DNA of 60,359 nucleotides, filler included, from Hausera hauseri (Eukaryota), in the NCBI GenBank assembly GCA_046269625.1. It is 12 parts of 12 records of this genome, joined end to end, with 100 filler letters (N's around TTAATTAATTAA, not from the genome) between each part and the next. Parts side by side here need not be neighbours in the genome. Positions count along the whole stretch, not along the records: positions 26,424 to 31,538 come from JBJURY010331049.1; 11 more parts are not named here. One strand, 5' to 3'. The translations under genes and the position numbers were made by a program. Numbering within the stretch: the stretch's first letter is position 1; each line of letters opens with the position of its first letter. The notes under the pieces are model-generated. The model saw nothing but the letters and a program-made list of their open reading frames with translations. It searched no databases and was not told the origin of the DNA. This document shows positions 1-55,109 of this stretch, piece by piece.

Positions 1-1150
1 ATGGCGATATCCCATCATTAAGGCAATATGTTCTGGGAATTCTCTGGCTAATATCAGGTCATACTGGTTTAATTTTTGAATGATTTTACGGTCTCTCAAC
101 ACCATCATGTTATACAACTCAGCTAAATCCATTTTTGCGGTGTGATAAATATAATCTATCTTGTTATTTGTATATGGATACCACTTTATATCTTCAGTTG
201 ATAACTTCCCTGTATTTGAAAGAGTTACGTTTGTTACGAATAAATCTTCATAGGATGTGGAGTAAACTGCATTCGATCCTCAAGTGGATACTGCTCCTTT
301 ACGTGTTAGTACGATTCCGTATTTGTTACTAGATGACATTAAAACTTTTAAGGAAGTGGTCTGTTTCAAGGTTCGTGGAGTAGGTAGACTTATATTATGG
401 TTACGCACAGGTTCTTGATATTTCTCGTCGTATTATAAATCACCTTGTATTTCATACATAGATGCTTGTTTAAGGAAAGCTAGTGGACATAGTACGATCG
501 TCTTTTTCCAGACTAGTGTAGATTTTCCTAAGGTACACACTCTATCGGAATATGTACAGGATGGTGCGGTTAACATTTTTCATGTAATTGCATCGAAATT
601 TGCTTTATATTCTTTTATGGTGACGGTATAATCTTCTATTTGTACTACAGCAGATTCTTTTTCTCAATTTATCATCATACTCTCTCCTTTACAAGTTCCA
701 CCGTATCCAGGCCATATATTTCAGCTGTAACTATGCGTGAATAAACTCGTTTTCCTATGCCTACTTGTACTGGCTGTTGAAGGCCTACATGGATTGAATC
801 CGTAGCTTTTATAAAATTTTCGACTGTTATTGTCAGAGGTTTAGGTAATCCTGGTAGAATAATTACTGAATTCCATGAATTATGGCCTTAGTTTAAGGTG
901 AATACTATTTTATTGACTAGACATTCATTTACTGAACTTGTTGGTAACTAATTCGTTGATATAAGTTATAGTTGTAAGGACCTTCTTTCTTTAGTGATAT
1001 TGAGTTAGCGTTTTGACATTTGCCTATAACCACCAGTGAAAGTCTGGCTATTATTTCCGGTTTGGAACAATCATAGGCTTCTCACGCTTTCGTGGTTTTT
1101 AGGCTGCTAACAGCGATTAAATATAGTATCAGGTGAATAATTTGTACTAC
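1..1150 (-). pseudogene. Class III (chuvirus/herpes gB-like) envelope glycoprotein, N-terminal half, with upstream hydrophobic signal
   Basis: WVVQIIHLILYLIAVSSLKTTKA*EAYDCS (AYDCS at 1064-1078) resembles the N-terminus of chuvirus-type G proteins. Cys-containing ectodomain; homologous to ORF 26655-27458. Confidence 0.75.
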
Positions 1151-1194
1151 CCAATCTGAGACACTGGTATCTCTAGGATACATTAGAGTTGTAG

Positions 1195-1590
1195 GGTTAA
1201 ATTTCTTGAGGATTTCATCCCAACCTCCTTGTTTGGTTACCAATCTTTCATTAATTTATCCATGTGATGGGCTAAGTCCCTTAATATATTGTGTAACTTG
1301 GCATCAACCTCTGTTTGGTCTTTGAAGCTGACCACTATGCATCCCAATGTCATTAGTAGTCGGTTTTGATCACATTCCTTTAAAGATATTGTTAGTGCTT
1401 TATTTAAACCTCCTTTTAGTTTGTATTTCTGTAGCAATTTTGTTAGTTGCGATGAGAAATTTCTAGCGGTTCCTGTTATGGACTTTAATGGAATCGTTGT
1501 AATTGTTGGTATCTTCTTGTGTTGATTTGGATTAGCTTTCTTGATTAATTGTTCTAGAAGTTCATGAGTTGTTAATGTTACCTGTTTTAT
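1195..1590 (-). pseudogene. Bcl-2-family-like domain (one -1 frameshift at about 1239)
   Basis: Manual translation: TTHELLEQLIKK (BH4-like) ... ITGTARNFSSQL (BH3-like) ... CDQNRLLMTLGCIVV (BH1-like) ... KLHNILRDLAHHMDKLMKDW[V/I]TKQGGWDEILKKF (BH2; GGW at 1220-1228). NI-to-W spacing is the same as in Bcl-2 [24 protein letters not shown]. Confidence 0.65.
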
Positions 1591-3981
1591 CTATTTCACT
1601 TTGATCCGATGTTTTTGTAGCCGGATTTTTTGTTCATTCTCATCATCACTAAAGGTAAATCGTTGGAAGTTATTGTATAATATATCCTCTAGTGCTTCTC
1701 GTTGTTCCTTACGCTTTTTAGACAAAGATCTTTTCTTCCTTTGTGTTTCTGGCCTTTCTTCTTCAGGATTTTCTTCAACATCACTTATGGGGTTAAAATC
1801 GAATTTTCGTGATCTTCCTCCCTTTTTCTTAGTACCAAATTCCATGGTAATCTGATGAGTTTTCCCGGTAATGAGTCCATAATCCACCATATAATCATTG
1901 TCAGCGGCTAATCTACCGTAAACATGGTTTTCGCTATTATATTAGTTTCCAGATCTAATTCACCTACTTCGGAGATCTGCTGTTACTTCAATAACTTGTT
2001 CCCGCTTGTTGGTTTTAATTTCTATACTTATAGTATATGGTTGTTTTCGTCTATATTTTTATCTTAGGTCCCTACCAAGAGTTTCAAGTAGCTTTTTTGC
2101 CACTGAAAAGCAGAATATATCGTCCTTTGTTAGAGGCAAGAGTAATGGTGCGCACTATATTCGGCTGGCTAATGATAGTGGCTCATATTGTAGTAAGGCA
2201 TTCCATACCTTGTTAGGTGCTGAATCAATCATTTGTAGTTTGGTTTTAATAATTTCAGTCATTAATTCTGGGGTTCACCATGCACTACTGAACCTGAGGG
2301 AATATTCATTTCCGGGATATTTCTTGGGTTTTCAATTGGTAATCATGTAGTTTCGGAATATTGGATCATATCTTGTGTAGGAATGAATTCATCGTCCTCT
2401 AGAATCTTAAATACTTCATCTTTGTCTATGTCTTTTGTTACATTTGTTATCGGTGGTCCCGATTTAGATGTACCTGGTTGTATTGAATCAAAAATGGTTT
2501 CAAGTAATGTCGGTCATTCGGGTGGTACCTTAGATTGGGATAATGGTGCGACTAGTTTGTCGTTATTAGGTTCTATCCATTATCCAGTTAGTCTTGTTCT
2601 GACGAGCTCATGTGAGTATTTGTCGGAATCCATATCCGGGTGCCTTTGAGCGATTGGTTTGATTACTGGGATTGCTTTTGCTTCAGTTGTCTTTTCGAGT
2701 TTCCGAATTGCTGTGAAGGCTATTTGTAGCGTCTTTTGTCTTTCTATTATCCACGGTATAGTGTATTCCTCTCGCGCAGTTTTCAAGTATTCGTCTCTAT
2801 ACCTTTGTGCCCTAATTACTGAGTTATGACCATAATATAGGTCCAAACATTTGTAAGTTATGTTGGTTTGTTCCAGATCGTAGAAGGCTGTTAGATTTGT
2901 TGAATTTATTTTCAACGTATTCAGTAGTTTTGGCAATTGGCGTCGAATAATTACTTTTCCCGGTCAATATTTATTTATGAATTCACTTACTAATTCTTGT
3001 CGTTGAGGGTTGGACCGTCCACTATATTCGGTATACTTTGTAGTGTCTGGTATATTCGGATACACATGAATATTGAGAATTGTTTTTCCTTCTAAGTTTT
3101 AGCAGTGACTTGAATAAGTCCCTTTTGATCTCCTTTGGTTATGCATCTACCTGTTAGTATTATTTCTCTATACTGAGTTACAGGTTCATCTACAGGTAAT
3201 ATAGATGTTTCCTTAAGCAACTGTATTAAGTATAAAGAGCAGTTATCTAGGGGTTGAATTTGACAATCTCCTTCGTAGGGATAATTAGGAAGTATCATAG
3301 TTTCCTTGGAAATGATTACTATTTTACTGATTTGTAGCCGGACTTGTCCTTGATTAGTAATTATAGCACATGCCGAGTCATTCCTTTTAATCTGGATATC
3401 AACATTCTTTAAGTATGCTTTATCAATACCTTCCATACAAATCAGTCCTTGTTTAGAAATATCTTCCAACTTTCTTCGGATAGACCTCTTGTTAGCGAAT
3501 ATTTTATCCCAGTTTTGAACTGTATCTATGTCCAGACGTTGTAATTTTACTTCCGGAATCAGGATGGTGGTATATGTTATTTCTCGTTGGAGATGTCTGT
3601 CATCTTTATACAAGGGTCGACTTGGAAAAATATAATATGGTGATACTTGACAATTAAGTTCAATTTTGTATTCTTGTCGTAGATGGGTTAATCGTTGAGG
3701 TAATGTATCTTCTCTTTCCCACTGATCATTTCGCAAATTAAAATTCTGATTTACATTAAACGTACCAAAGATATCTGTTTTATTTAGCTGTATTTGCTTA
3801 AATAGTCATGGTGAATTGATTCCAACAATGAGTTTTCTACAGAGTAACTGTCTGAGGCTGTCAGCGCATTTTTCCTTTTTGAGATGTACATTTTTTAATT
3901 CAACTATCAAATCACCTTCTACGTTCTCCATTCTTATTCGATTGATTTTTGATTACTGTTCGTCTTCGATAGTTTTTTCTA

Positions 3982-4081: not shown

Positions 4082-5189
4082 GACATGGTTATATTTTTCA
4101 TTATTTCAAAATTCCTTTCGGCGAATAATGAGTTTATATTTTATGAAATTTTAACAAAACATTAACGAAACGTTGTTAGTTGAGTAGTGGTTGAAAATTG
4201 GTGGAAGAGATTCGGAAAATATTTTCAGTTGTCAAAATTTTTATAATTACTCTGTGGGTTGGAAAATGAACAAGTGCAGAAATGATGTCAAATTTACGTT
4301 ATTTTGGGTTGTCGACGTTGTCGTCCTGTAAATAATTCTTTGATTATGCAAACAGACGGATACTTCCGATAGTAATGAAACGGCGCTTTTATTGAGTCCT
4401 CGAAATCGGGACCACCGCTTGAGTAGGCGTAACCCGTGATTCATTCTACACACTCAAAAGGTCTCTCGACAAATGTGATTTTTGTAAATTAAAGTAATCA
4501 AACTTGGAACAGACAGAGAACTAGACGAACTTTGCACCATCATCCAATGAGTTTTTCATTTGTGTTCCACTGATCGAATAGAAAGGGAAAAGTAGTGACG
4601 TATTCGACTGCCATCGAGTAAAATTCTCAGGAGAAATTTTCGTTTAAAAAATGCACCATTTGAGACTTACGCGCAGCAATGCATATGACTGACAATTTTC
4701 TTGCCAGATACTTCTCATTGTCGCTGGCTCGGATCTCAAAATTTTCCATTTTCTACCTTTCTTTTTCCCCCATTGCCCAGTATGTGCATTTTGAATCTGC
4801 TTCTTTCGGTCCATCGCGTGCCTTGTTCGATCCAAACAGCTCCCAACATTTAAGAATTCAATCAGTAGTTACTGCTACTTGCCAGCAGAACATTTTTAAG
4901 CACACAAAAGCCCAATACAATCGATCGACATATAAGACCGAAGTAGGTCAACAGCAGAGATGATTGGAGACACCTGGAATCGCAGCACGGCACCTGATAA
5001 TGATGAGACCATTGATATATCAGTAGTCAGTAGTTTACGTGTTAATTGCATATTGTTGATTCTGGTTTCCCACAATTTTTTAATATTAACCAACTCGTTG
5101 TTTTTGTATCTTCCCAGAAGTGTATTCAATTGGCCACAGTTGTTATTCTCATTAGTAATACCCTAAATTAAACAATTTGATATTTTCAG

Positions 5190-8100: not shown

Positions 8101-9127
8101 TGGCATGACTGTTAATCAAGCTCTGCAGGCTGACAGTTTTGAAATTTGCTGCCCTCAGATCCGAGGTGCAAATATCGAGTACTATAGTTGCCAAGCACCA
8201 GAGGATGCCATATCGTCGTGTGTTAGTTTGATAGGAGACACAATTCAGCGTGTGCTTCTCTGGATGATGGCAGTTGTTTCTGTTCTGGGGAACTTGTTAA
8301 TAATTTGCCATCGCGTAATCTGGGACAGGCCAGTACTTAAAACGGCGTATGGTCTGTTTGTGACAAACCTTGGTGTATCTGATTTTATAATGGGAATCTA
8401 TCTATTTATAATTGCGGGAGCAGATAATTACTACAGAGGCAACTATGTCCTATTTGACAAAACTTGGAGAGAAAGTTTTGCTTGCAAAGTTGCAGGCTTC
8501 CTGGCAACTCTGTCTTGTGAAACATCGACACTATTTATAGCCCTTACCACCATTGACAGACTAATTGTAATAAAATTTCCTGTCCATGAAAAACAGTTGT
8601 CTCCATTAAGAAAATTAGTGCTGACTGTCTTGTCTTGGGTGCTTGGTTTCATACTATCAACAATTCCATTCTTTTTCAACTATGACACGTATTCTTCTGG
8701 AGCTGTATGTCTGGGCTTACCTTTGACACATAAGCTACACAATGGCTGGAAATTCTCTTTTGCTGTGTTCATTGTTTTTAATTTCTTAATGTATCTCATC
8801 GTTGCTTGCTGTCTGATCACCGTGAGACGTACTATGTCAGAGCACAAAGTTGTCGATTCTGTAGCAAATAATAATTCTTCAGGAAAAGCAGGTGACAAAA
8901 CATTAGCCACCCAGCTGTTTCTTTTAACCACGTCCAACGTCTTGTGTTGGTTTATCATCGGTGTTATGGGCTTCGTGTCATTAAGCAGTATAGGAATCAA
9001 CAACGGTGTTTATGCTTGGGCAACAGTGCTGATTCTACCCATTAACTCTGCTATAAATCCTATTCTGTATACTGTCCCAGTGGTAATGGTCAAATGGGAA
9101 CAGTTTAAATACGGACGCTCCAAATAA
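5190..9127 (+). CDS. GRL101-like LDLa/LRR class A GPCR with N-terminal VWA-like and C-type lectin-like domains; giant terminal exon, 5' exon(s) not identified
   Basis: 1316-aa ORF. C-type lectin motifs (CY...AKC...HLATVES...VFIGL...LCE), multiple LDLa repeats (CD...HC...DE..C), LRRs (LDLSGIDL, LDISYNLI), 7TM with TIDRL and SAINPILY. Acceptor-like ttttcag at 5183-5189. Confidence 0.9.
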
Positions 9128-17060: not shown

Positions 17061-20000
17061 AATGTAATTCAAACCCAAAAAAGTCTGAAGATTTTTTCAA
17101 TCAAATTAAACATCAATTTCGATTTGGCGGACCTTTAGACCCGAAACGAAATCCGAATCTCATTAATTTTATTATAATTGGTTTGATGTCGGGTGGGATT
17201 ATTTACAGTGTTTACAGTAACATTTATCGACAAGTTCCATGGAAGGAGTTTGTGGAGAATTTCTTAAAAAGGTAATGAGTGTTTATTATTACTTTCCATT
17301 TTGGGAATTTGTTTAAAGGAACGTAAATGGTTTACTGTGGCTAACATGAACTGTCCTAATAACAACGGTCAAGGTTAGAAAGAAAAAATTGTACGTGTAT
17401 GTGATAAGTAACATAATAAATAAAAAGAACTTCATATTTGCAATTATTGTTTACTAAAATTGTTTTTATTACTTAAACAAATATTTTATCATTTCTACCA
17501 CCAAATAAATGATAATACTATCACAGGCACATTTTATTTTTTCGTACCTTGTTCGGTGCTATTAGGGCAGATATGTTTGAATTTCATTATGTTGTAATCG
17601 TTGTATATTTAGGGGCATCGTATCAGAATTGGAAGTTGTCAATCGGGAATGGGTCAGAATTCGGTTGTATGACAGACCGATTTATACCATTAAAGAAAGC
17701 GATGATGAGTTTTTTCAAAAATCGTCCATCATTGACAATTCGAAAATATACTGGTTTAACGTTGGTAACGTCGATACATTCGAAAGGAACTTACGGAAAA
17801 TTGAAGAAGAATTGGGCATCGAACCGAGTCAACAAATGGCCATTATTTATACCAAACGATTTTCATTGTATTCGATTTTCGATTGAAATATTTGACTGAT
17901 TAGCTTTAGGTTTAAATTTTTGGAAGGTGTTAGCGGATGGGTCATTCCTGCAATTGCTGCGTACTTTTTATTTCGTTACATGGCTCGTGGAATGCCGGGA
18001 CAAGTAATGGAGTTGGTTACGAACATATTCGATATTTTATTAATTTAGGGTGGTGCTCCAGGTCGATCGGGTGGTTTATTTGGATTCAGTCGATCAACGG
18101 TGAAAATTGTTGAAAAGGGTGACATCAAGACTCGGTTTTTCGACGTTGCCGGATGCGAAGAAGCCAAAACGGAAATTATTGAATTCGTAAATTTCTTGAA
18201 AAATCCCGAGAAATACCGGGCATTGGGAGCAAAAATCCCGCGTGGTGCTATTCTGAAGGTATGGTTATTTCACCGTTCGTCGATCATTGATTGTCAGGGA
18301 CCTCCGGGTACCGGAAAAACGCTTTTAGCCAAAGCAACTGCCGGTGAAGCCAATGTTCCATTCCTCTCAGTGTCGGGTAGTGAGTTTCTGGAAATGTTCG
18401 TCGGCGTCGGACCGGGTCGAGTTCGTGACATGTTTGCTCGAGCCAGATCGACGTCACCGTGTATTCTGTTCATTGATGAAATCGACGCCATTGGACGAAA
18501 GAGAAGTGGCCGCTCGTTTGGCGGAAATTCTGAGCAAGAAAATACGCTGAATCAATTATTGGTGGAAATGGATGGTAAGTTATTATCATTGATTTATTTG
18601 TTGGAATGGATGATGAGTTGATGATGAATTGATTTGTTCTTGATGGTGGTATCGCTTGCGATGACTGCCCATGATTGTTTCTAATCTTCTCTCTGATTCC
18701 ATTTCATGGTTTTGATCTTGTAATTATCTTCGATACATTTTCATTTCATGAATTTAGGATTTAAGACATCGGAAAACGTCGTTGTTTTGGCTGCAACCAA
18801 TCGGATTGATATTTTGGATCCGGCATTGCTGCGTCCCGGTCGATTCGATCGGCAAATATATGTTGCATTGCCGGATATAAAAGGACGGGCATCGATATTC
18901 AAGGTAATTATTGCTGATTGCCCGTCGCGGTCTGCGAGAGGTTTTTGTCTCGCCTGTTGGGGACTATCTTGGCGAACTATCGAATTTTTCGAATATGTTC
19001 GATTTCTATTCGAATTCGAACAACCCTAACTCGAATTTATCGTTTTCTCTTTCTTTCATCGTCATAGTTAAAGTAAAACCTCAATTTACAATCACGCAGG
19101 TTCATCTGAAACCCATCAAAACCAGCATAGACAAAAACGACGTATCCAGAAAACTGGCTGCAAGAACGCCCGGTTTTTCTGGTGCTGATGTTGCAAATGT
19201 GTGCAATGAAGCTGCTCTTATCGCAGCTCGAGAAAACGCTAGTGGTGTTGAATTTAAACATTTCGAATCGGCAATCGAACGTGTCATCGCCGGATTGGAA
19301 AAAAAGACGCAGGTATGATGAAATGTGCAACTGCTGCCATTGTGTGCCATTCAATTGATTTTAGGTTCTTCAACCGGAAGAGAAAAAAACTGTTGCCTAT
19401 CACGAAGCGGGACATGCAGTTGCCAGTTGGTTCCTCGAGCACTGTGATCCTCTGCTGAAGGTGTCCATCATTCCGCGCGGCAAAGCACTGGGTTACGCAC
19501 AGTACATGCCACGCGACGCATATTTGTTCACAGAAGATCAACTGTTGGATCGCATGTGCATGACGTTGGCTGGTCGTGCCAGTGAATTGATATTCTTCAA
19601 TAAATTCGGATCCGGTGCACAGGACGACCTGCAGAAAGTCACACAGAATGCATATGCACAAATTGTACAGCTCGGCTTTAACAAGAAAGTCGGTCATTTA
19701 AGTTTCGATCTTCCTCAACAGGGCGACATGAACCTTTCCAAACCGTATTCGGAACACACTGCTCAGCTAATCGATGAGGAAGTTCGAATTATGGTTCAGA
19801 AATCGTTTGATCGTGCCGTAACATTGTTGACCTCGAAACGTGATTTTGTGGAGAGAGTTGCGCTCAAACTGTTGGAGAAAGAACAGATTGACAAATCAGA
19901 TATGGTAGAGATATTAGGTAAACGACCGTTCGCTGAGAAGACGACGTATGAGGAATTCGTTGAAGGAACCGGTTAGTTTTTGTTTTGTTATATGTAAATT

Positions 20001-22940: not shown

Positions 22941-23948
22941 AGGCAATGAAAACAATAGATTGCGAATTCAACAACTTTCTTTTTCAAAACAAACTCTTAT
23001 TTAAACAAATTATTGTTTTAATTCCTTTTATGAATTTTCACGAATTCATGTTACTACAGTTAGCATGCTTAATGATAATGATTTCCAAAAACATGCTTTA
23101 TATAATTTACGGTGTATGATGTAATCCTTTCTGATTGGCTGCATATATGTAAGGAAAGGACAAAACAATTTACAGAACAAAATTAAATAATTAACTGATT
23201 AGAACATATATTTAATAACAACTATCATATTTTCACTTTCGCACTTCTGTATCCAACTGCTTCAACTTACATTTCTCTGCCGGTAACATCGAGCAATTTA
23301 ACATCTTGTGATCAAAAATAACATTCACAATTGTTCTAATTAGGATTCAGTTATAACCTTAACCTTTTAAAACTAATTACCTAGCATACGCGAATTCTGA
23401 TCGCTGATACCTTCTATATGATAACTGTGTCGACGTTTCCTCACTTTTATATCGTCAGGTAGCTCAATAATTATTGGAACGTTTAGCAAGTTTATTGTGT
23501 ATTCGCGGAAACAGTCTGATGGTTTAAAAGTATTACATTAAAATGTTTAAAACAAATGACCCTTTTTAACTTTCATCTCTTGCTTGGCGATAACTCCAGC
23601 TGGAAATTTCCAACGTGTGGCATCATTACCTTTGGCCTCATCGTCATGGACCACTTGAGAAATTTACTTCTTCAAATGTTATTGAATTCCAAAGTCCTGC
23701 TTTATTGTTTGCAATATCTAAATATTTCTTCAAAACTCACAAACTTTATTAATTGATTAGCTTTCTCTGATGTATCATTGTAACTAAGACATTATAGAAG
23801 TTTCATTTAAAACTTATGACAAGGTCGTCCTTATATACTTTTTCATTTGTTTATATATCCTTCCCTGTGTGTGCATAGACTACTCTACCCTACCCGCTGT
23901 AACTGTGGAACATGCCTTGTACACCAAAACTTTTCCCACGGATTTGTA

Positions 23949-24094
23949 GACATTCTTAGACTGTTGCTATGGAATTCTTAGACATTTTTAGATTGTTGCA
24001 ATGGGACTCATAGACATTCTTCAACCGTTGCTATGGAATTTTTGAACATTCGTACACTTTTAGATATTCTTAGACCATTGGTATGGAACTCTGA
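23949..24094. repeat. Degenerate 32-bp tandem repeat (about 4 units)
   Basis: GACATTCTTAGACTGTTGCTATGGAATTCTTA-like units at 23949, 23981, 24013 and about 24063. Confidence 0.75.
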
Positions 24095-24223
24095 GATATC
24101 CAAATAGTCTTAGATAAATCCTCCACTTTTGGGCCAGATGATTCATTAAGGCATGACTCATCGTGTATGATGCATTACGAGTTGCTAACTACCTGTCAAG
24201 AATATGTAAATTTACATTTACAC

Positions 24224-26423: not shown

Positions 26424-27960
26424 AACTACCGACTGAATTCACGTAGGCTTACAACAGCCAGTACAGGCAGACATAGGAAAACGAGTCTACTCACGTATAG
26501 TTACAGCCTTAAAATATGGCCCGAATATTGTGGAACTTGTAAAGAAGAAAGTATGATGATAAATAAACAAAAAGAATCTGCTGTAGTACAAATAGAAGAC
26601 TTTGCCGTCACCATATAGAAATATAAAATAAATTTCGATGCAATCACAGGAAAAATGTTAATTGCACCGTCTTGTATATACTCTGATGAAGTGTGTACAT
26701 TAGGAGAATCCACACAAGTCTGGGAAAAAACAGTCGTCATATGCCCATTAACTTTCCTTAAACAGGTACCAATGTATGAATTACAAGGCGATTTATATTA
26801 CGATAACGAATATCAAGAACCTGTACATAACCATAGTATAAGTTTACCTACCCTACGAACGTTAAAACAGACAATTTCTTTGAAAGTCTTAATGTCATCC
26901 AGTGACAAAGATGGAATCGTATTGGCACGCAAAGGAGCAGTATCGACTTCTAAATCGAATGCAGTTTACTCTACGTCTTATGAGGACCTATTTGTAATAA
27001 AAGTAACCTTTGCAAATACAGGAAAGTTACCAACTAAAGACATAAAGTGGTACCTATACACAAATAACAAGATAGATTATATTTATCACAACACAAAAAT
27101 GTATTTAGTCGAGTTGTATAATATGATGGTGTTGAGAGACTGTAAAATTACTCAAAAATTAAATCAGCATGACTTAATATTAGCTAGGGAATTCCCGGAA
27201 CATATAGCCTTGATTATGGAATATCGTCCTGGAACATTTGGTAGAGTACAAGGTGAAATACTCCATGTATACCAATGCTCGCTGATAGAGGTAACTTTAG
27301 TAACATCGCCAAAAGCAAATTGCACAAACGAATTAATGGTACAATACAATGATAAAAACATAATAAAAATTGGATATGTGGACCCTATCACCCGAAAGTT
27401 ACTGTTACCTACTGAAATTAGCTTCGCACCATGTTATAAAGACTTCTATTCAAACTAAATGATGGAAGATGGACTAAAACATGCTTACCAACTATGATGA
27501 ACATAACACAAACGATTGGATTATTACCACTGGATAAAGGGTATAAAGTTTAAAGTAAATAGTAAACTACACACCAGTGGATGGAATTCATTAACAGACC
27601 TGGAAGCAGTAAGAAAACAGGTATTATTTCAGAATATCCGAAAAAAGGTTATTACAGAATTTGTATATATACTGCTACGAAAGGATCAGATGGTACACCT
27701 AATTATGGAATGCTACTGCCAATTGATCATTTAGAAAGAACAGCTTCCTTTATGACTTCTGGAATAAATTCCTTAATTTTGGTCAGGTAATATCTGGAGT
27801 TTTTTGGTATATGTTATAATTACCACCATAATGATTATATTAAGACAAATAGGAGCTGCCAGAAATGTAAAGAAAGTACGTGGTAGTACATGGTAAATTA
27901 TGCTGGGATGTTTCCCCTCAATGGCGCAATTAGTATTAATGTATTGGCACGCAAAGGAAC
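26424..27960 (+). pseudogene. Class III (chuvirus/gB-like) envelope glycoprotein, C-terminal two thirds
   Basis: G...GEILHVYQC..IEV...CTNELMV.Y...YVDP.TR.L...C pattern of chuvirus-type G; TM segment IWSFLVYVIITTIMIIL at about 27790-27840; frameshifts after 27450. Confidence 0.8.
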
Positions 27961-30900
27961 TTGACAAATTAAGAAAATCACTTCGTCTAGCCCCAGAATT
28001 AAAGCAACAATTACAAGCCTTTATCAAGTTAAGAGTGGAAGAATACCTGGTTAAATATAAGCTATTAAGAAAGAAAGCTTGACAACACTTTGAACAGGAA
28101 GCATCAAAATACTATAAACCCGAACCTATTGATAAATTTACGGAATACCCTGATTATAGAGAAAAGATGGTCACATCCATACATGATCTTCCTATGACAA
28201 CAGATTTGGATGAATATACCTGCTTACCAAGTACTGCTTACCCACCAAATGTACTCCGACAATATAATACCATGGATACTCGACGTAATAACACAAAATT
28301 CATTTCTATGACCCAAACTACTATAACAACATGAAATAACCCGTATGATCGAGTACGATTTAACGGATTAAATATTATGGCACTACTAGATACCGGTGCA
28401 TCCGTGTCAATGATTCGACATTCATACTTAACTGAAGATCAAAAAGGAGTAATCATGCAAGCGATATAGTAATAGCAGCAGCCAATTCCACCAATGTGCA
28501 ATTCCTAGGAAAAATAAACATTAAAATAAGAATTGACGGTAACCTGAATACTATCACCTTGTTTGTTGTGGATGACAAAATATTACCAGTGCCTCTAGTG
28601 ATAGAAATGGATGTATAGCCTCAAATTTCAGGACTCTTGATGGACCTATCAACTAAGATACTTAGATATACGCTGACTAACCTACCAATTGAAGACATCA
28701 GTATGACTCTAACTCATGATGTTATTTTAGGATCACAATTGCAAGTAGTAGTAATACCACAAGCAACCTTGTATGTTTGAACCGAATTTATATAATAATG
28801 AAAAATATAGTATTCTACAATATCCCTTATTTGTACCAAAAGGGGTACAATGTTTAAAATTGCCAATAGACAGTAACAATAAAAAGGCAACCAGATTACA
28901 GCAAAACCTCAATTTAGGACAATTACAACCACTTAAAGTATGCGCAGCAACGTTCTTAGTAGAAGAGGAAAATATGAAATTTAAAGACGGCGATTTAACA
29001 CTATATCAATGGAAAAAATTACTGCAATTATTCCACAAATATCGAGATATTATAGCTATGAATGATAATTACATTGGCAGAACTAACGTTATTCAACATC
29101 ACATAATCACAGCGAACACCTCCCCTTTTAAACAAAATCCGTATAGAATGGCTAAAGTTAAGAAGGAATACAAATAGAACAAACGGTAGAACACGGTATT
29201 ATCAGACCAAGTTTCTCGCCATAGACATTCCCAGTGGTTAGTGCAGAAAAAAGACGGAACACAACGATTTTTCGCCGATTTTAGAGTAGTAAATAATGTT
29301 ACAAAGAAGGATAATTATCCATTACCAAAGACAGATGAGATGCTCACAGCCTTAAGAAATGCTGCAATATTTACCACCTTGGATTTACAATGTGGATTTT
29401 GACAAGTTGAAGTTGCCGAAGAAGATAAACAAAAAACAGCCTTTTCTACCGCAACCGGACTGTGGGAATTTAACGTTATGCCTTTTGGTTTGACAGGAGG
29501 ACCCGCCACATTTCAAAGATGTATGAATTTTGTATTGCAAGGACTAACCTGTTGTATGGTGTACATAGACGATGTAATAATATTCTCTGAAAACCTCGAA
29601 CACGTAAAAGATATTTCTCAAGTATTTGACAGACTGAAACAAGATCATTTAGAAATCGAACTGAAAAAATGAATTTGCTAAAAATACCGTTACTTTTCTC
29701 GGACACAATGTCGAGCAAAGGAATTCAACCCGATCCTAAAAATGCAGAAAAACTTAAGAAATTAAAACCACCCAAATGTATTAAGGAGTTACAAAGACTG
29801 TTAGGAATGACCAATTATTGCAGGAAATTTGTATATAATTTTGCAAGTATAGTTATACCACTAGTAACATTAACCAAGAAAGGAACAACATGGAGTTGGG
29901 AGGAATCACGCCAGCGAGCATTCGTAGTTCTAAAGCAAGTCCTAACTTCACCACCAATACTGTAATTTCCTGACCCAAAATATTTCTATATAATAATGTC
30001 AGATGCCAGCGGTTACGCTATAGGAGCAGTCTGAGGGCAATGCGTCCTCGACAGACCGCGTGAAGGAATAATAGCATGCCTCAGCAAAACGCTAAGCGAA
30101 ACACAACATAGATGGTCAACAATCGAGGGCGAGTGCTATGCAATAGTATATGCATTACGATACTTCAGATATTACATAACTGGATGAGAAATAATCCTAT
30201 ACACTGATCAAAAACCATTCCAGTGTTTAATGAAACGAGACACCAGTCGATAATTAATGAAATGGGCTGCAGAAATCGAAGACCTAGAGATCTCAATAAA
30301 AGCAAAAAAACACCACTAAAACCAGTATCATTTTTAGCATCACCATTTGGTTGTATAGGTGTCGATATAGTGGGACCATTACCAACCACTGCCAGAGGAA
30401 ATACATGTGTACATACAGCAAAAGATTACCACTCAAAATTTCCAATAACGATGTCAATGGTAAATTAAACCACGGATGTTATGGCCAGAAGATTAGTCGA
30501 TGACGTAATATTCGAATATGGAGTACCAATGACAATGATATCCGATAGAGGAAGCAATTTTTGCAGCGAGCTTATGGTAAAAGTACTTGCAATATTAGTA
30601 GTTAACCACAAATTTACCTCACCTTATCATCCTCAAGCCAATGGCGCAATCGAAACCTTTAATAAACAATTTTCAGTCATGATATCTAGCTACGCATATG
30701 ACCCTCCAGCTGATTGGTATCTGTATATAAAACCTTGTGTATATACCTATCAACAGAGTCCCCATACGACAACTGGAGAGTCACCATTTTTTTTACTGTA
30801 TGGTAGACGAGATATTATTCCAATTGATCTGGAATATAGACCGCCACAATCACAACTGATGGAAGAATCGGATTATGCAACAATTCTACAAGAAAGATTA

Positions 30901-31220
30901 CAAGTGGCATGGATCAGAGCCGGATTAAAAATTAAATACCACCAAGAAAATTTCAAGGACCAATATGATAAGAAGGCAAAGACTCATCGAATTGGAGACT
31001 TACTCAACATATTAGATGAGACCTTTAACCAGGTGAAAGCCCCAAACTAAAATTACCCTATAAAGGACCATACAAAATATTACAAAGAACTGAATCAAGC
31101 CTAGAACTACAAAACCTAGCCAACCCTAATAAAACCTCTTGGATGAGTGTGCAGCGATTCAGACCAGTTGCTAAAGATCGCACATTGGAACAGGCACCAC
31201 CTTGTAAATACCCATGAAGA
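26424..31220 (+). mobile_element. Decayed enveloped Ty3/gypsy element with order env-PR-RT-RH-IN
   Basis: Glycoprotein 26424-about 27960; PR ALLDTGASVS at 28380; RT YPLP, LDL, MPFGL, YIDD (29561); RH DASGYAIGAV (about 30002); IN VDIVGPLP, SDRGSNF, YHPQANG; GPY at about 31065. Confidence 0.92.
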
Positions 31221-31638
31221 AGTAGAATGCAATTAGATGAGAAGAATATGACAGTTGCAAAACTATGACGGAAACCTTAAAATTGAAAATAATCGAAAGA
31301 AGTGCAATATATCACAAGCTAATAAACGGGAACCAGTTAAAAGTAATTGGCGTGGTCACAGCCTTAAGTAAATTGAAAGGTAAGCGTTCAAAAAGCCTGT
31401 ATCACATTAGATAATACCACCATTCCTTGTATCATAGGTCGAGATACGCTAATAGATTATAATATAGTGATAGATGTAGCTACGAATTCACTAGAAAAAA
31501 CGAAAGATTTCGAGAAGTACCGAAAACATGTAAACGAANNNNNNNNNNNNNNNNNNNNNNNNNNNNNNNNNNNNNNNNNNNNTTAATTAATTAANNNNNN
31601 NNNNNNNNNNNNNNNNNNNNNNNNNNNNNNNNNNNNNN

Positions 31639-34600
31639 TCACGTTGCAAAATTGTGATGTTTGCCACTAATTATAAAGCATTTTTGTCGCAGAAACGGAA
31701 ATAAGTGCAAAGACTTACGACCCTGAGACGCAAGACATTCGTATTGAAGATTACCTGAAAAATCGAGACGATTATTTTTACTACAAAGGGCAAATTGGAA
31801 TTGCCAAACTATATCAGAAAATGATAACGAATGACTGTAAATTGGATATGGAGATCATGAGGACAGAATTAGGTCTTATCTATGCTAACCCTGAGTTATC
31901 ATCACCAATAATTCCTATAAAAGGAATTTCCGGTCGAGTTACCGGTGAAGTCTTATTGACTTATGAATGTGAGAAACGAGACGTACCAATTAATGTCGAA
32001 GAAAAACGATGAATACAGGAACTCCCCGTTATTTATCAGAATACTCCACGGTTAGCCATGCCGCTTGCTACAGTATTATTAAATAATGCAACCGAACCAA
32101 CGATCCTTAAGGAATGTAAGGCAAGTTTAGGAAAACCCATGTATAGACGTAGCGAAACGGATTGGGTAAGCCTGCCAAATGGAGGTATTACTGCCGACCC
32201 AATTAAGTTAATAGGAACTAACCTCGTAAAAGAAATAGCGGACGACAAATTCCAAGACATCTCATCAAAGGGTATATACAGACAAAAGGAAATCGAAGCG
32301 TTCAGACAATCTCTTACTTTTCCGCGACAACGGACACACAAGTTAAATCGTGCCATGGCCTCAGTAGTAGATATTACTCGAGATCAGGCTACATGGAGAT
32401 CTTTGTTCGGAGTAAACCATTACCAACAAATAACCACGGAAATACTCTACAAAATTTGGGAAAGATTTTTAATTTTTGAACAAGCTACATCTGGATTTTT
32501 AGCAATATTTCTTAATCCAACTAATTAAGGCAGTCATCCAAGCAGAAATAAACGGATTTGAAATATTTACATTGACTGGATTTTCATGCAATATTTTGAC
32601 TGTAATCATTACCCTTCGGTAAGTTTTAAAGGCATGAAGAAAGCAGATGGAAATCGGACGTAAAGCGTCATGTCGGCTACCATAATCGCAAACGAAAAGG
32701 GAGACCTGTTTTTGTACAACCGGAAGCTCTCTAAACCTGAGACACGAAGAAATAATTCGGATGATGACGAGCCTAAAAGAGAAGCCTCCTTTAAAACAGA
32801 TAGACAAGATATATTCAATCGCTAAGGCACCATTGCCCATGTTATCCCCTTCCTTTCCAGTCTATGAAGACTGATAAGCGATCAATGAGTTCATATCAGA
32901 CAAATCTATAAGAGGACAATCAGCTTGGAATATCCTTATGAAGAGACAAAACGCTATGGAATTTTACGGAAAATGTGCTATCGACAACATATAGACGAAC
33001 CTAGAATTTGGCACTCCCCAAGAGAACTTCGAAATATAAAGACCAGGCCACCTGCTTGGGGAAATCAAAGATTACAGACCTTCCGGAACATATAATCGCA
33101 CACTAATAATCGAGAACCACTAATTAGTACTCATGAGTCAGAAAAGTGCAGCCTCCAAAACAATGAATTATACCCAAATTGAGAATTAACACAGGTAACA
33201 GAAAACAGTATCCTCCCCAGAAATCAGAATAAACGGTCATAAAATATCAGCAGTGAAACGCCCAAAAGTTGCATCAAATTGTTTTGGAACCGAGTAATCG
33301 AAGGACGACCTTTCGCAAAATCATTATTGGAGACTGGGAAGCTTATGCGCTAATTGACACAGACTCCGACATGTCTTACATCAAAAACGACTCAATTCCT
33401 CAGGAGTTAAGCGGACGGTTATATCCACCGTCTACAAAGGACCCAGGAAGTGCAGGAGCTTTTGGCCAAATGTCGAAACCGATGTTCAAATAGAACCCAG
33501 AAGTTCATATAGCTGGACAATTTTTCCGTCACGAATTTGCAGCTATAGAATAATTAACTGACGATGTACTTTTAGGCTGCGACTTACTGAAAAAACTATC
33601 AAATGTAGCAATCGATTTGAAAACAGGAAAACTAATAGATTAGGCAAAATAAAGGCGTAAAAACCGCCAAAGAAAGGACATTTGCAGAAGTGTGGATCCC
33701 AGTAGACAAAAGCATTCCACCGAGAAAAGAGGTGATAATCTACGCTCAAATCCAACAAGATGATGACCAACCAGTACATTTTGAATCAAAGAAGCGTTAA
33801 ATCAGAATATAATACTCAGTAATATATTGACAAAAGTTCATTCAGGGTGTATGCCAATCAGGATAAATAATGCACCGACACCTGTTAAGTTACACGCTTA
33901 TACTACCTTAGGGAATACGTATAGTGTCGTCCATAACTATTGAAGAAAAACCTTACAAATATGCTGAATTTCCACCCCATGTTGAAACTAAGTTTTCACC
34001 TGAATCTTATTGTCGATTCTACGAATTATTATACCGCTATAAATCAATTATTGATAAAGACGACGATGACATTGGTAGGGCAAAAGCTTTAAAATTGACT
34101 TCTACTTAAGAAAAAGCCAGGTTCAAGTAAGGAGAGATTTTGAAGATCAAAAGATGCCGAAATGGTACCCTTCGCGACATTCATTAATACCCGTGATAAC
34201 AAAAGAAGTCGAACGGATGCTTAAAGCCGATATAATTCGGCCCAGCTATAGACCTTGGTACTCGCCAATTTTTATGGTTAAAAAGAAAGGTACTAAAAAC
34301 ATCAATTTTGTATTTACTACATGGCACTGAATAACCTCATGATGAGAGATTCCTTCCGATTACCATCAGTAAAAGAAGCTTTGGATAGGCTTTCAGGAGC
34401 AAAATGGTTTAATACTCTGGACTTACAATCCGGATATTGGCAAGTGGAAATCGAGGTTGAAGACCGCTATAAAACCGCGTTTAAAACGCATGATGGTGTT
34501 TATGAATTTAATGCCATGCCGTTTGGTATTACCACTGGACCAGCTATTTTACAAGAATGATTAATAAAATGTTAGTGGGGCAAGACCACGCTTTGCATAC

Positions 34601-36625
34601 TAAGATGATGTAATGATAGCGTCGAATACAGAATAGGAACATTTAAAATATTCGGAGCATACATTGATGAGATTAGAACAATCAGGATTAAAATTGAACC
34701 CAAAGAAATGTAAATGGACTCAGAATGCAGTATCCTACCTTGGACAACCAGCCAAATCATTATTGAACAAGATATCAGATTGCATGGAGCATTAAAATCA
34801 GAAAGAGTTAATACACTGGCTAGGTTTATGTGGATATTGCCCCACCTATGTGCCAGATAAATCGAAAATAAATGCACTTTTACATCGTCTACTTAAGAAA
34901 AGAATTAAATGGAAATGGACACATCGAACAAAAGGCTTTCGATAAAATAAAAATTTTAACAAGCGAACCAGTTTTACGATACCCAAAGTTCAATTTACCA
35001 TTTATAATTAAGACGCCAGTAAAGANNNNNNNNNNTACGAATTAGCTCATAAACGAGAGGATAACGATTTGGAGAACCAAATTGCGTATGGAGGCGTTCC
35101 TTGAAAAAGGCCGCAAAAAACTATTCCGTTACTGAATTTAAAACCTTAGCCATTAAAGAAGCACTTCGACATTTTAACGTTTACGTATACGGACAGAAAA
35201 TTATAATTGTTACTGATCATAAAGCCGTCACAACCTTGAAGGGACGAGCAAATAATCCTATCTGCAGGTTTAACAGTGGACTGAGGAAATTTCTAAACAT
35301 AATATCGAATTTAAGTATAAGTCTGGAAACAAACACGTAGATGCTGATGCACTATCGAGACTAAAAACTAAGGCAAGTGCAATTACGATAATGAAGAAAG
35401 CTCAACTTGACGAATTAATAGACCGTCAACGCACTTTGACGATGGGCAAAGCAATGAAAATCTCAACCGAACAAAAGAGGGATAAAGTTATCCAGCAGAT
35501 TATAGAATTTGCTAAAAAGGATACAGTACCGAAAGGACGATAGCTTAAGACACATTTAAACAGGCATGGATACATTGTGTCTTGAACGATAAAGGCCACG
35601 AAGACACTTTGCATTATGAACGAAGAAAATTAATAGTCATCCCAAAAGGCTTACGCACCGAAGTCTTAATGGCAAAGCATAATTCATATTTAGCAGGACA
35701 CGTCATAGAAAAAGACGCTGAAAAGAATATTGAATAAATACTTTTGGCCCAGTATCTATATTGATGTAAAGAATTGAGTAAATGCTTTCGAAGTATGCGC
35801 AACTAAACACAAAAAGACGGAAAACTACATGACAGAGCTGAAATCAATTGCCGTACCAGACAGACCTATGCAAGCCATGTCAATGGACATTGTATGACCG
35901 CTACTCACGACCCACAAAAATAATAAATATACCTTGACTTGTATTGATCGACTAACTCACTTTGTCGAATTGGTAGCGTTAACCGATAAAAGGACAGAAA
36001 CTTTGGAAGAAGCTGTGGTAAGAATATTAATTTATCGATATGGGCCCCCAGATCAAATACTGACAGATCGAGGAAGAAATTTTACTAGCGAACTATTTCA
36101 GAAAATTAAAATCTTTAAAATTGAGCAGTTAACTACCACTCCATGCCATCCTCAATGTAATGGAATGGTTGAGCAAATGAAGGCAGCTGTCATACGCATA
36201 TTATCCACAGTACTAGCTAAGGACCAAAAATATTGGGACGAATTTTTAGAAGAAACTCAATTTGCCAATACAACACCACATCCAGCCACAGGATTTACAC
36301 CATTCTTCGTGATGTATGGACGTGAAGCTGTGTTACCCAGACTTAGGAATGACGCCATCTACGCTTAATCCCGAAGATTTAAAACAGAATTTTGAAGTAC
36401 TACAGATGCGACTACAAAAATGCTGGAAAATCGCCAAAGAATACTCTCGAAAATATCAAGAGCAGTTTAAAAGGCAATATGATAAAAAAGTAAAGCCACG
36501 CGATTTAGAACAAGGAAATTTGGTTTATGTACATTACCCAGTAGATAAGAAAGGTACGTCGTTAAAACTGACTCGTACAGGCATAGGACCATACGAAGTT
36601 ACTAAAATTAAAAGGTCCAACTTGA
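31639..36625 (+). mobile_element. Second, divergent enveloped Ty3/gypsy element (env-PR-RT-RH-IN), heavily decayed
   Basis: Glycoprotein GISGRVTGEVLLTYECEKRDV...QELPVIY...C...MY (31639-about 32650); PR ALIDTDS (33347); RT LDLQSGYWQV, MPFG; RH TDHK; IN HHCC remnants, TDRGRNF, HPQCNG, GPY (about 36586). Confidence 0.88.
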
Positions 36626-37321
36626 GACTGTTTAATAATACTAAGAAGCTTATTACATATACCAGTAAGGCGCAGTTTAAGGAAAGCATTATCGCAGATG
36701 ACCTAGTTGCCGTTCTCCTTGATGAAGATGAGGTTACTTTAGATAGGCCCTCATACATCGGTCAGGCTGTTCTTGAACTTTCTAAGTTGCGGATGTATGA
36801 GTTGAATTACATCGAGTTGGAAATTTATAGGTGAAATTAATAATAATTAACTGTGAAATTAATATCATTGCCAGTGACACAGACAGCTTTTTTCTTGAGT
36901 GCCCTGGTGTTGACTTACGAACCCAACAGGACACTTCCAACTATGATGTGAGTGATCCACTGTACTCCACTCGCTTCTCGTCTGTGATAGAGAAATTTTA
37001 GAATGAAGGTAAGGGTTGTGTCGAGTACAAAAAGGAATTTTCTTGCGACCAAAATCTTATGCCTTGAAAACTCAAAACAGATCCATCCTTAAATGCAAAG
37101 GCATAAATCTGCAGCAGACAGATTTGCAGTTTAGCAACTTCCTATAGGCGTATGAAAATGAATGTGAAACAACAGTCGACCAGGAGAGAATTGGGACCAA
37201 AAACCACCAATTAATGATCATTGATTCGAAAAAGAAGGTACTAGACCCGTTTGACGATAAACACCTATGGTTACAAAAGAATAAAAGTGTAGCGTATGGA
37301 CACCTGTATAGATTTGTAAAT
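36625..37321 (+). mobile_element. Protein-primed family B DNA polymerase C-terminal fragment (Polinton/adintovirus type)
   Basis: V.LDRPSYIGQAVLELSKLRMY, SDTDSF, DTSNY, LRPKSYA, KCKGI, K..L.PFDDK, AYGH. Confidence 0.85.
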
Positions 37322-37421: not shown

Positions 37422-39170
37422 CTTAATTCTTTTTTCCCATTGTGTTTTATCTGAAATGAAATGTGCAGCTCTTGACGAGGCCATGGGTTTTCATACTCAT
37501 TATAAAGATGAATGGCTTGTGATCCATGCGGATTGTGAACACATGTCCTTCGAGGAGGTGTATGAAATGTTGGATGCTGAGAATTATAGTTAGTAATTCT
37601 CAGTTAAAAGTTGAGTAGCGTTGCTCTGCGGAATTGAATGTGCGGAAGAAAATTCAATTGGATCATTTTTGCCATCAAATGATTGGATAAGCATAGCGCC
37701 TGCAGCGATTGTGGATGCATCTGTTGTTAAAATAAATGGTGCATCTCGTTTCGGATAGTGTAATGTGGGAATGTGGAGTTATGCCTGTTCAGCCCTGTCT
37801 GTCCAGTTTATTTAAGATTTCTTATGTCCTTGACTTAGACAAGATAGTTGTGACAAGATTTGCAAGTATTGAGGAATGTAGCGATGACAGGTTTTGATCG
37901 TGCCAAGGAAACTACGAAACCCAGTCACGGTGGACAGCTTCGGTATTTATTAGATGGTTCGCATGTAGGTTGTTTTTATTCATTCGGCGAAACACGTGTT
38001 TAAAGTGTGTTTTATAAATCGCTTCATAATGTGATGCAATCAATATTCCGTCTATATATGGAATGGCATAAAGTACGTCTAAGATGACTTGGTCGATGTG
38101 CCTTTGGGATTTTTGACTTGCGTTCCGTAGACCGAATGGCATGCGTAAGTATTCAAATAATCCAAAAGGCGTTATGACGGCTGTTCTTGGAATGCCGTCG
38201 GTGGTGACGGGGATCTGTTGGTATGCTTTTTCCAGATCGATTGTGGTCGAATATGCTGCACCATGTAGGTGATGCAATATGTCAGTTACCAACGGCGTTA
38301 AGTATGAGTCGTGGACGGTGACGTTATTGAGCATTCTTTAGTCACTGCAAGGCCTGTATGAACCGTCTTTTTTGAGTACCATGTGCAGTGATGATGCCCA
38401 TGGCGACGTAGAGCGACGAATGACGGTGTGTTCGTTATTTTTAGCAAATTTTTGAAATTTTGACTTTCTCAAAATTGGTGAATTGACGTCGGGATGATGG
38501 TTCATCTCTAGTTGACGAATTCTTGTTTGTTACAAGTGCCTGTAGGGCAGCGAATATTGTATCAAGCTGATTTTTCTGGGTTACGGTGACGGAGTTGAAG
38601 TTTCCCGTATGTTCGGATTCTGCAGTGTCTTTAATATACTCGCGTATGCGACCAACTTTCGATTCCATATAGCACAAGTACCGCCTGGATTTGACTGGGC
38701 AAACTACTAAGGAAGTAGCGCCGTAGTATGTGTTTGTTATTTGTGCAGTCAAACTCAGTATTACCTAAGTCGGTACGTAGGTTCTGTAGCAGAGCAGGTT
38801 TCATATTTCCTGTCTGTCGCTTGGTGAAGATCAGGTTGAATTAGTTTTGTTGTGATGGCAGATATGCTTTGCATATGGCTGCTTTGATTTTGTCAATCGG
38901 CTTTTTATTTCACAGTAATGCGTCGAGATCCGTTATAACTGCGAGCGTTGTTGGCTGTAGGTACTGAATCAATGTTAGGGCCTTGTTTAACAGACCATTG
39001 ATGATGCATTGAGTAGCCAACGTCTCGAATACGTGGAACCATTTCAATGGCGTTCCCTATGAACCTATGAAAAAGGTTGGACACGGATGTTTGGGGGTTT
39101 GGCTGGAGCTGCTGAAGTGCATTTGTGTCAGCACCTCCTTTTCGTTTAGGAGTCGCAAGTATAGTTTTAT
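37422..39170 (-). mobile_element. Decayed Ty3/gypsy element (gag directly followed by RT-RH; protease region apparently deleted)
   Basis: RT IDLEKAYQQIP, TPFGLFEYLRMPFGLRNA, YIDG; RH TTDAS, DHKP; gag remnants (KWFHVFE, KPALLQNL). Confidence 0.82.
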
Positions 39171-47559: not shown

Positions 47560-48600
47560 TTTGTAATGCAGAACTCCAATTTGGTGCAGTGTATCCGTGC
47601 CACTTACGAGATATTGTTTATTCTAAACTTTGCCATATGAACGTAGAATTTCTTTAATACGATATACATCCGGTTTCTCGGGCAGTACTTGCAGTTCCCC
47701 TTTGTAGAATTAACCGCGTATTTCTTTACCGTTTTCATCCTCTAAAACGCACATGAATGGTGTTTGTTTTGTGTTTATTGCCGAAATGCGGAAAATCTTC
47801 TCTCCATTTCTGATTGAAATTTTAATGAATGGCGTCGTACTTATTTTCGAAATACTTACGTAACCACCGATTTTATATTTTTGGTGTTTAATTGCCTGTC
47901 TTTGTCGTTGTGGTGTTTGGTTTTGATAAAGCCATATGTCCAAATCATCGATTACGTCAACCGGTCGTAATCCATTGATTCCAGGGTGTGTCTAATGATT
48001 GTATGCATAAATAATATCCGGCAGTACATCCATCCTGCGCTTGTTGCCCTGCTTCGTAAAGAATTTGTATAGGCGACCGCGCAATGTTCGATTAAATCGT
48101 TCAACGAGTGCAACCTTGTATTGCAAAACACCGAGTAATGGTTTAAGGCGAACCGTTTCAAGACCACTGCAACGTTGGCGTTGTAGAATTCCTTACCTAA
48201 GTCCGTTTGTAAATGCTTTGGCTGTTGTTGTTGTTGTATCAGTGTCTGAACAGCGTCGGCAATCTCTTTATCGGATTTAGGTTTCACGGCAACTGCACGT
48301 GCAAAACGACTAAACACATCAACGCATGCAAGCACGTACCGGTACCCATAGTTGATGCTGGCGTACGGAATCATTTCCATCAGATCCATTTGCCATATAT
48401 TATTTACATCTTCAGCACGGTATGCATCAGTTGGAAACCGCTTTCTTATCAGTTTGTTTAGGCTGTATGCTAACTGTTTCCCGAGCCAACGTTGGGTCTG
48501 TTGCCAAGTCGCTTTGACAGTCTTTGCCACTTTGTCGATGCCAGTATACCCGAGGGGATGACGCGGGTTAAACGACACGTCGCTCATCGTTGTCATCAAT
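47560..48600 (-). pseudogene. Polinton retroviral-like (rve) integrase with chromodomain remnant
   Basis: WQMDLMEM, YVLACVDVFSRFA, LQTDLGKEFYN, G.FYKGELQ, KWHGY. Confidence 0.9.
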
Positions 48601-48718
48601 AGTGTCGGTTTTACTTGCATTACAATAATTAGAACAAAACGTAAATGAAAGATTCGGTAAACTGGGACAGAAAGATGAAAACCATGCACCCATATCGCAA
48701 ATCACCATATACTTACCG

Positions 48719-54976: not shown

Positions 54977-55109
54977 NNNNNNNNNNNNNNNNNNNNNNNN
55001 NNNNNNNNNNNNNNNNNNNNTTAATTAATTAANNNNNNNNNNNNNNNNNNNNNNNNNNNNNNNNNNNNNNNNNNNNATCATTGATTTAAAATTTATAGCG
55101 GAAAGGCCT

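Follow-up and report, generated by a model that had tools for sequence, protein, structure and literature searches.

The contig at 26424-31538 of the window (the whole stretch of DNA analysed here, 60,359 nucleotides from Hausera hauseri, in which 12 short contigs are joined by artificial N-TTAATTAATTAA-N linkers) very probably carries a decayed Burro-like Ty3/gypsy element, in which a chuvirus-like env runs in frame into the retroviral protease (PR) and whose intact relatives encode env, PR, reverse transcriptase (RT), RNase H (RH), and integrase (IN) as a single chain, likely with Gag first. We are confident that the env-to-protease frame is real and that the fusion is the rule of the family.

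Domain order and reading frame of the window copy

The contig begins within env and ends ∼400 bases past IN, and no LTR is visible on it. All features of the element lie on the plus strand. The env ectodomain (26427..27768), whose 5′ part is lost at the contig edge, is chuvirus-like and of the class III/gB type (PF24664, a Monjiviricetes/chuvirus-like fusion glycoprotein family, E 2.7e-18), with 54% identity to the intact relative P0002 across 488-493 aligned residues. It is followed by the main transmembrane segment of env (TM1, 27769..27842), which aligns with residues 1911-1929 of P0002 and is frameshifted near 27805-27807, by a basic loop that is likely cytosolic (27843..27890; five K/R and no D/E), and by a second hydrophobic segment containing Pro and Cys (segment 2, 27891..27947), which lies within the PF24664 match and has the stop at 27894 inside it. 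The env tail or linker (27948..28346) extends for ∼133 codons to PR in a stop-poor frame, with stops at 28080 and 28332. The retropepsin protease (ALLDTGAS; 28347..28654), frameshifted near 28457, was detected by a profile of the relatives' proteases in two frames (iE 1.1e-8 and 0.0012); its Pfam RVP match (E 0.004) is below the cut-off. The spacer between PR and RT, where Burro has a dUTPase-like module, is ∼190 codons long; alignment to relatives resumes within it at 28755, and it gave no Pfam match. Then come three decayed domains: RT of Ty3/gypsy type (29241..29712; RVT_1 E 2.3e-25), RNase H (29897..30280; PF17919 E 1.1e-24, PF17917 E 8.8e-24), and the integrase core with its C-terminal part (30310..31124; rve E 1.3e-9, and tblastn to P0003, P0009, and P0152). 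A suspected protease remnant after the integrase (∼31400-31500) was matched neither by the protease profile nor by Pfam.

The best PDB matches of the RT are to Ty3 RT (E 6e-36 and 3e-35), with retroviral RTs at E values of at least 1e-8 (foamy virus at least 1e-8, HIV at least 3e-5). Judged by its sequence, pol is of the Ty3/gypsy type, with the order PR-RT-RH-IN and an RT closest to Ty3 among solved structures. The C-terminal part of the integrase carries a GPY motif near 31060, which we take to be the motif labelled GPY/F. The name GPY/F is used in the excerpted text of PMC12440569.

Within the frame set by 26427, whose codons start at positions divisible by 3, only three of the 207 codons between 27789 and 28409 are stops (27894, 28080, and 28332), against 18 in each of the remaining two plus-strand frames and 15.1 ± 3.6 in 10,000 base shuffles (P(≤3) = 0.0003). 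One frame of the reverse strand likewise has just three stops, so the stop count by itself is no proof, and it is homology that settles the strand: read with X at the stops, the frame yields a PF24664 match that extends as far as the second hydrophobic stretch, followed by the protease. Point stops aside, the frame is open from ∼27807 to ∼28457, where PR itself is frameshifted. An earlier note on this DNA had proposed one frame from the TM segment to the protease, broken by these three point stops, and both the stop counts and the homology bear this out; its positions for the stretch IMLGCFPSMAQLVLMYW and for the motif ALLDTGAS are also correct, and there is indeed no gag between env and PR.

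That note also put the main G (env glycoprotein) ORF, at 26655, in the common frame. The net frame is equal, but the ORF is not continuous with what follows: against P0002, G shows at least five frame changes between ∼27455 and ∼27810, one of them within the TM segment near 27805-27807, so that the large G ORF and the TM segment come to share a frame merely as the net of these shifts. Compared with sibling copies, the ectodomain and TM region carries indels at 27539-41, 27745, and 27805-07, and PR carries an indel at 28457; the ectodomain is broken by stops as well. The ATG codons at 26655 and 28377 are both internal: the former is not the start of G, since homology to P0002 extends to the contig edge at 26428, and the latter falls within PR, whose domain match already begins at 28347. 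This copy of the element is dead.

Intact relatives, sibling copies, and upstream modules

Word-based protein searches returned P0002 as the sole match. This intact relative (1963 residues, PF24664 E 1.9e-63) is open across the position of the window stop at 27894. A profile built from the G part found 692 representatives, and the best 150 of the 692 were examined; 99 of these extend to the G end, and in 14 a protease motif follows. When the proteins that extend this far are ranked by score, 11 of the first 14 continue into the protease in one chain, so the env-pol fusion suggested in the earlier note holds across the family. The fused relatives have Pfam protease matches, some below the curated cut-off, and five of the 19 scanned also contain RT and RNase H in the same chain (P0003, P0009, P0010, P0012, and P0013). 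P0152 (4844 aa) combines RT and RNase H in its chain with an ankyrin match and seven protease-like stretches, and tandem extra proteases are present in six fused relatives. The linker from G to the catalytic Asp measures 71-332 residues in the relatives and 148 in the window copy, whose linker has no sequence match to theirs. No relatives turned up in the viral contigs or metagenome contigs searched.

In several relatives Gag lies ahead of env on one and the same chain, recognized as zf-CCHC in P0006, P0013, and P0018 and as Retrotrans_gag in P0016. The order in these relatives, and probably in the window family, is therefore gag-env-pro-pol, and the description of the layout as the reverse of gag-pol-env does not stand. 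P0002 has no Gag match within its 1340 residues before G. In the window copy, gag is most likely missing because the contig starts inside G.

We placed the window G in a quick version of a tree, built with 45 of the 98 stand-alone G rows and with a window row that fills 45% of the columns; P0027, P0092, and P0114 were left out as too short. A single clade (SH-aLRT 95) unites the window G with P0002, the full set of 11 fused rows, P0007, and P0017, and leaves out 43 of the 45 stand-alone G rows.

Sibling copies were examined in one public run, X1, which is perhaps the window's own source and in which the family is present in high copy: 18,412 contigs aligned on the 5.1 kb contig and 1,394 on 27885-28345. 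The earlier note had raised the point of whether the stops are private to this copy. The stop at 27894 is absent from P0002, and that at 28080 is absent from 98.9% of sibling depth (another letter in 41448 of 41904, 63 contigs); that at 28332 is at the edge of the aligned stretch, and the X1 depth speaks to the stop at 28080 alone. No indel between 27885 and 28345 reaches half of the depth. By eye, the best 40 of the 43 majority differences in this stretch create no new in-frame stop; the remaining three are low-ranked, one of them G>A. At sibling-variable sites (share <0.9), which span 27926-28286, 13 of 18 differences are at third codon positions (p = 0.0009); at near-fixed sites, mostly the window copy's own decay, the count is 5 of 22.

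Overlapping X1 contigs (27886-28122 and 28037-28342) cover the linker in full, and intact relatives hold G and PR in one chain; G and PR thus belong to one element, and G does not come from an adjacent upstream element. An origin of G and pol from two adjacent or nested elements, or from misassembly, could draw on the patchwork of short contigs in the window, on the fact that no LTR is visible, and on a one-in-three chance that frames match. This reading, to which we give next to no credence, is refuted by the linker-spanning contigs and the single-chain relatives, of which there are at least 14 among database proteins, each with G and PR joined; the window's second element also has a like order. 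That element (31677..36648, plus strand) is distant from the first and comprises G (PF24664 E 8.3e-25), a linker, PR (33317-33631; RVP), RT (RVT_1), RNase H, and IN (rve); it is heavily frameshifted, with 10, 12, and 24 stops per frame between the TM segment and PR.

The position at which env ends in some relatives bears on a further reading. The chain of P0002 ends at the residue matching 27942-27944, exactly past segment 2, where either a stop or a contig end is possible; P0007 and P0017 end 24 and 47 residues past G, yet belong to the fused clade; and 58 stand-alone G proteins have a median tail of 62 residues. Such ends would suit an env that terminates just past segment 2, with Pol, in the shared frame, made by stop-codon readthrough or translated from a separate transcript, spliced or internal, and the fused chain as a minor product. 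We consider this very unlikely, given that there is no majority difference at 27945-27947 among the best 40 of 43 (depth ∼32,000), that the third-position bias of the linker runs throughout 27926-28286, and that in 11 of the 14 best-scoring relatives the chain continues uninterrupted through PR. We retain the fused chain as the rule.

Upstream of env, the family can be followed on another contig of the window (1-3981), which holds a decayed sibling copy on the minus strand (4..3979) with 83% nt identity to 26426-27226. It is collinear with P0002 residues 384-1725 at 52-66% and comprises ∼570 codons, a ubiquitin-like lead (∼1830-2060), a Bcl-2-like module (∼1200-1500), an internal segment resembling a signal, and G in its 5′ portion. 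The BH2-like motif W-x4-GGW is present in four of the 21 relatives examined (P0002, P0004, P0007, and P0018) and in the sibling contig. With Pfam, three of four members match the Bcl-2-like module (best E 2.3e-5; P0007 scores 20.1 bits vs. a cut-off of 31.4). Comparison with Bcl-xL gave E 0.008, with designed repeats ranking higher, and a structural model with pLDDT 58 had Mcl-1 as top matches (Z 7.5, rmsd 3.8, 108 aligned). Foldseek with a single-sequence model of the stretch returned nothing at E ≤ 0.001, with Bcl-2 family chains at the top of the list; the Atlas had no useful match for it (0.77); and no Bcl-2 match was obtained for the window sibling alone or by whole-protein alignment. Support for a Bcl-2-like module before env is consistent, not firm, all matches being below firm thresholds. 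The ubiquitin-like module ahead of it is a lead only: an Atlas feature match to the PF11976 cluster (ubiquitin/SUMO-like) ranked fifth with a score of 0.85, and there is no Pfam match to such a module in the window sibling or P0002.

Host genes on other contigs of the window are animal. The AFG3L2 exon at 19365-19973 has its best matches in vertebrates, coral, and gastropods (56-76%).

The env tail and a possible route for Pol

Topology was assessed by the GES sum in 15 sequences, with a transmembrane threshold of at least 20. TM1 reaches this value in all 15 (median 37.5) and segment 2 in six (median 17.6; window copy 33.6, P0002 22.5). Segment 2 contains Pro in 15 of 15 and Cys in 14 of 15, and, since stand-alone G proteins have it as well as fused relatives, it is no hallmark of the fused layout. 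In all 12 chains examined, a hydrophobic, signal-like segment lies ahead of the G start.

The motif YPx(1-3)L/I is present in 8 of 13 linkers (1.6 expected) and in 24 of 58 stand-alone G tails (3.5 expected), the pattern having been chosen post hoc in both cases, and P[ST]AP is present in 13 of the 58 stand-alone tails (0.5 expected). The Tyr-Pro motif of the env tail may be an ALIX-type late-domain or sorting motif. The cytosol is where motifs of the Tyr-Pro and P[ST]AP kinds function, and RT and integrase must get to the cytosol or the particle interior. The Tyr-Pro motifs in the linker would thus favour a cytosolic protease, and a tether of Pol to the membrane through env would be plausible.

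If segment 2 were a true second TM helix, the fusion would still be real, with Pol made otherwise or freed before translocation. The six sequences at or above the threshold, the window copy and P0002 among them, and the 0-4 N-x-S/T sequons per linker could be read in this way. We regard it as unlikely: nine of the 15 sequences are below the threshold, an internal Pro is present in all, most have basic residues on both sides of the segment, in stand-alone G proteins the tails that follow it are enriched in Tyr-Pro and P[ST]AP motifs, and RT and integrase need the cytosol or the particle interior. We prefer a segment 2 that does not cross the membrane.

On that preferred topology, the internal signal before G would direct G into the ER, and host signal peptidase would release the upstream Gag or accessory part. 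TM1 would halt translocation, segment 2 would lie on or dip into the inner leaflet, and the tail with PR-RT-RH-IN would remain cytosolic and tied to the membrane. Clustering of env would then unite the proteases, and Pol would be cut free inside the particle. Gag, Env, and Pol would be made at 1:1:1 without a frameshift or splice. We put forward as a tentative possibility that throughout the clade Pol is packaged by Env and not by Gag, on the cytosolic tail, with Env driving budding through the Tyr-Pro motifs of that tail and trimer clustering activating PR; the tandem extra proteases of the six fused relatives could then serve as tethered partners. A Pol that rides on the Env tail would be a different way of building a retrovirus-like particle. 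At the level of literature listings, we found no paper on the threading or cutting of a Gag-Env-Pol chain.

Comparison with known env-bearing retroelements

Nematode endogenous retroviruses (NERV), described by Sacco et al. in 2022, reportedly have a continuous gag-env-pro-pol ORF. In the excerpted text of PMC13524379, Chary and Hayashi describe GAG-ENV-POL Ty3/gypsy 'errantiviruses' with an HSV/gB-type env from Platyhelminthes, Bryozoa, and Nematoda, the nematode elements having env before pol. These elements resemble that of the window in their Ty3/gypsy pol and in a gB-type env placed before pol; the main text, so far as excerpted, makes no statement of env and pol sharing an ORF. In the supplement to the same paper, six Schmidtea env sequences (Platyhelminthes_C1a) are by eye like P0003 and P0002 in domains I-II, whereas the bryozoan and nematode env rows inspected are by eye unlike the window env, the nematode ones looking like another subtype.

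Chuvirus glycoproteins are also known from BEL/Pao elements and arthropod genomes (excerpts of PMC7642597 and PMC10084718). The mosquito element Anakin shares with the window element a captured chuvirus-like glycoprotein, but its pol is of the BEL/Pao type, and an env-protease fusion is not mentioned in the excerpted text of PMC7642597. A pol of the Anakin type was rejected for the window element, whose RT, RNase H, and GPY-bearing integrase are Ty3/gypsy-like. Troyka, considered as a relative, is unrelated and without env according to the excerpt of PMC12440569.

The closest likeness is to Burro/GYPSM1, giant planarian LTR retroelements of the gypsy-like kind (Jurka 2007 and Grohme 2018, cited in PMC6431247). 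In the excerpted text of PMC6431247, the layout of Burro as a single polyprotein with env in frame between gag and pol was described in 2019, and the order is given as ubiquitin/SUMO-like, BCL2-like, env, PR, RT, RH, and IN. According to the same source, the Burro env shows a relationship to mononegavirus-type fusion glycoproteins, some copies are decayed, with stops and frameshifts, and further features include a size of >30 kb, BIR/RING, MATH, and ankyrin cargo, a dUTPase-like module between PR and RT, and an N-terminal CCHC Gag. A functional study of Burro1 is cited in the excerpted text of PMC13465017.

As in Burro, the window family has a mononegavirus/chuvirus-like env in frame ahead of PR in one polyprotein, and if the ubiquitin-like lead and the Bcl-2-like module hold, both being below firm thresholds, the order of these two, env, and PR would be that of Burro as well. 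It differs in that no BIR, RING, MATH, or ankyrin module was seen on the window's 4-6 kb contigs. The likeness is one of layout and module order as described. The element works like Burro and, known here from short contigs without LTRs or Gag, is best filed as Burro-like; the window copy adds a member and not a concept, because the layout is already known. What it contributes is a clade of at least 14 database proteins, with differing cargo, in which fusion is the normal layout; a family present in high copy number in one animal or more; and an env tail with testable features, namely a borderline second hydrophobic segment and Tyr-Pro motifs. If packaging of Pol by Env were true, the assembly route would be unlike that of retroviral Gag-Pol, and the family that uses it would be a broader one than the giant planarian Burro, with more compact elements.

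Composition of the window

The window is made up of 12 short contigs, and 100-base N-TTAATTAATTAA-N linkers occur at 11 places between 3982 and 55076; sequences on either side of a linker are therefore not true neighbours. An uninterrupted ORF of 1322 codons (5159-9127, plus strand) combines repeats of the LDL-receptor A type with a 7TM domain of the rhodopsin family. Pieces of a host gene for an AFG3L2-like m-AAA protease, with AAA and M41 domains, lie at 18049-19976 (plus strand), and a 32-base tandem repeat is found at 23940-24111 (four copies listed). More retroelement remnants carrying RT, RNase H and integrase are located on the minus strand at 37912-38469, 47952-48701 and 50802-59309; the segments 53472-54974 and 55569-57013, on two contigs, are copies 72-77% alike.

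A second, distant element at 31639-37321 (plus strand) contains G, PR, RT, RH and IN in the same order as the main element. In a quick tree its G was placed, on a long branch, in the clade that holds the main-element G, P0002 and all 11 tree rows with G and PR in one chain. The integrase end of this element passes into unrelated sequence at ~36650-37300.

Extra protease-like domains and the region after integrase

Seven relatives (P0003, P0004, P0005, P0006, P0011, P0016, and P0152) carry 2-7 protease-like domains per chain, part of which sit downstream of integrase. By eye, the post-integrase sequence …PCIIGRDTL… in the window (~31400-31500, plus strand) resembles the C-terminal half of an additional protease; profile search did not confirm this resemblance. 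A second pair of hydrophobic segments, enclosing 230-400 residues, was detected downstream of integrase in P0003 (2486-2740), P0009 (2257-2557), P0012 (2780-3195) and P0152 (4361-4730). The pair and the enclosed residues look like a second signal-ectodomain-TM protein; none of the four regions matched in Pfam. P0009, a G-PR-RT-RH-IN polyprotein, is assigned in its NCBI entry to a Flavobacteriaceae MAG, a label most likely due to wrongly binned animal DNA.

Tails of stand-alone G proteins and candidate modules upstream of env

Stand-alone chuvirus-like G proteins were taken from the matches of a profile search with the main element's G (best 150 of 692 representatives). Among their 58 tails, 24 contain a YPx(1-3)L/I motif and 13 a P[ST]AP motif, both far more than in shuffled sequences.

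Upstream of env, ~570 residues without assigned function (window 2268-3979, minus strand, equivalent to P0002 384-950) gave no match in Pfam. This stretch is followed, ahead of the env signal, by a ubiquitin-like lead and a candidate Bcl-2-like module (window ~1200-2060, minus strand; P0002 1022-1335), with probable counterparts in P0004, P0007 and P0018. Ubiquitin-like and Bcl-2-like parts before env have been described in Burro, and the window sibling copy and P0002 may have a like arrangement.
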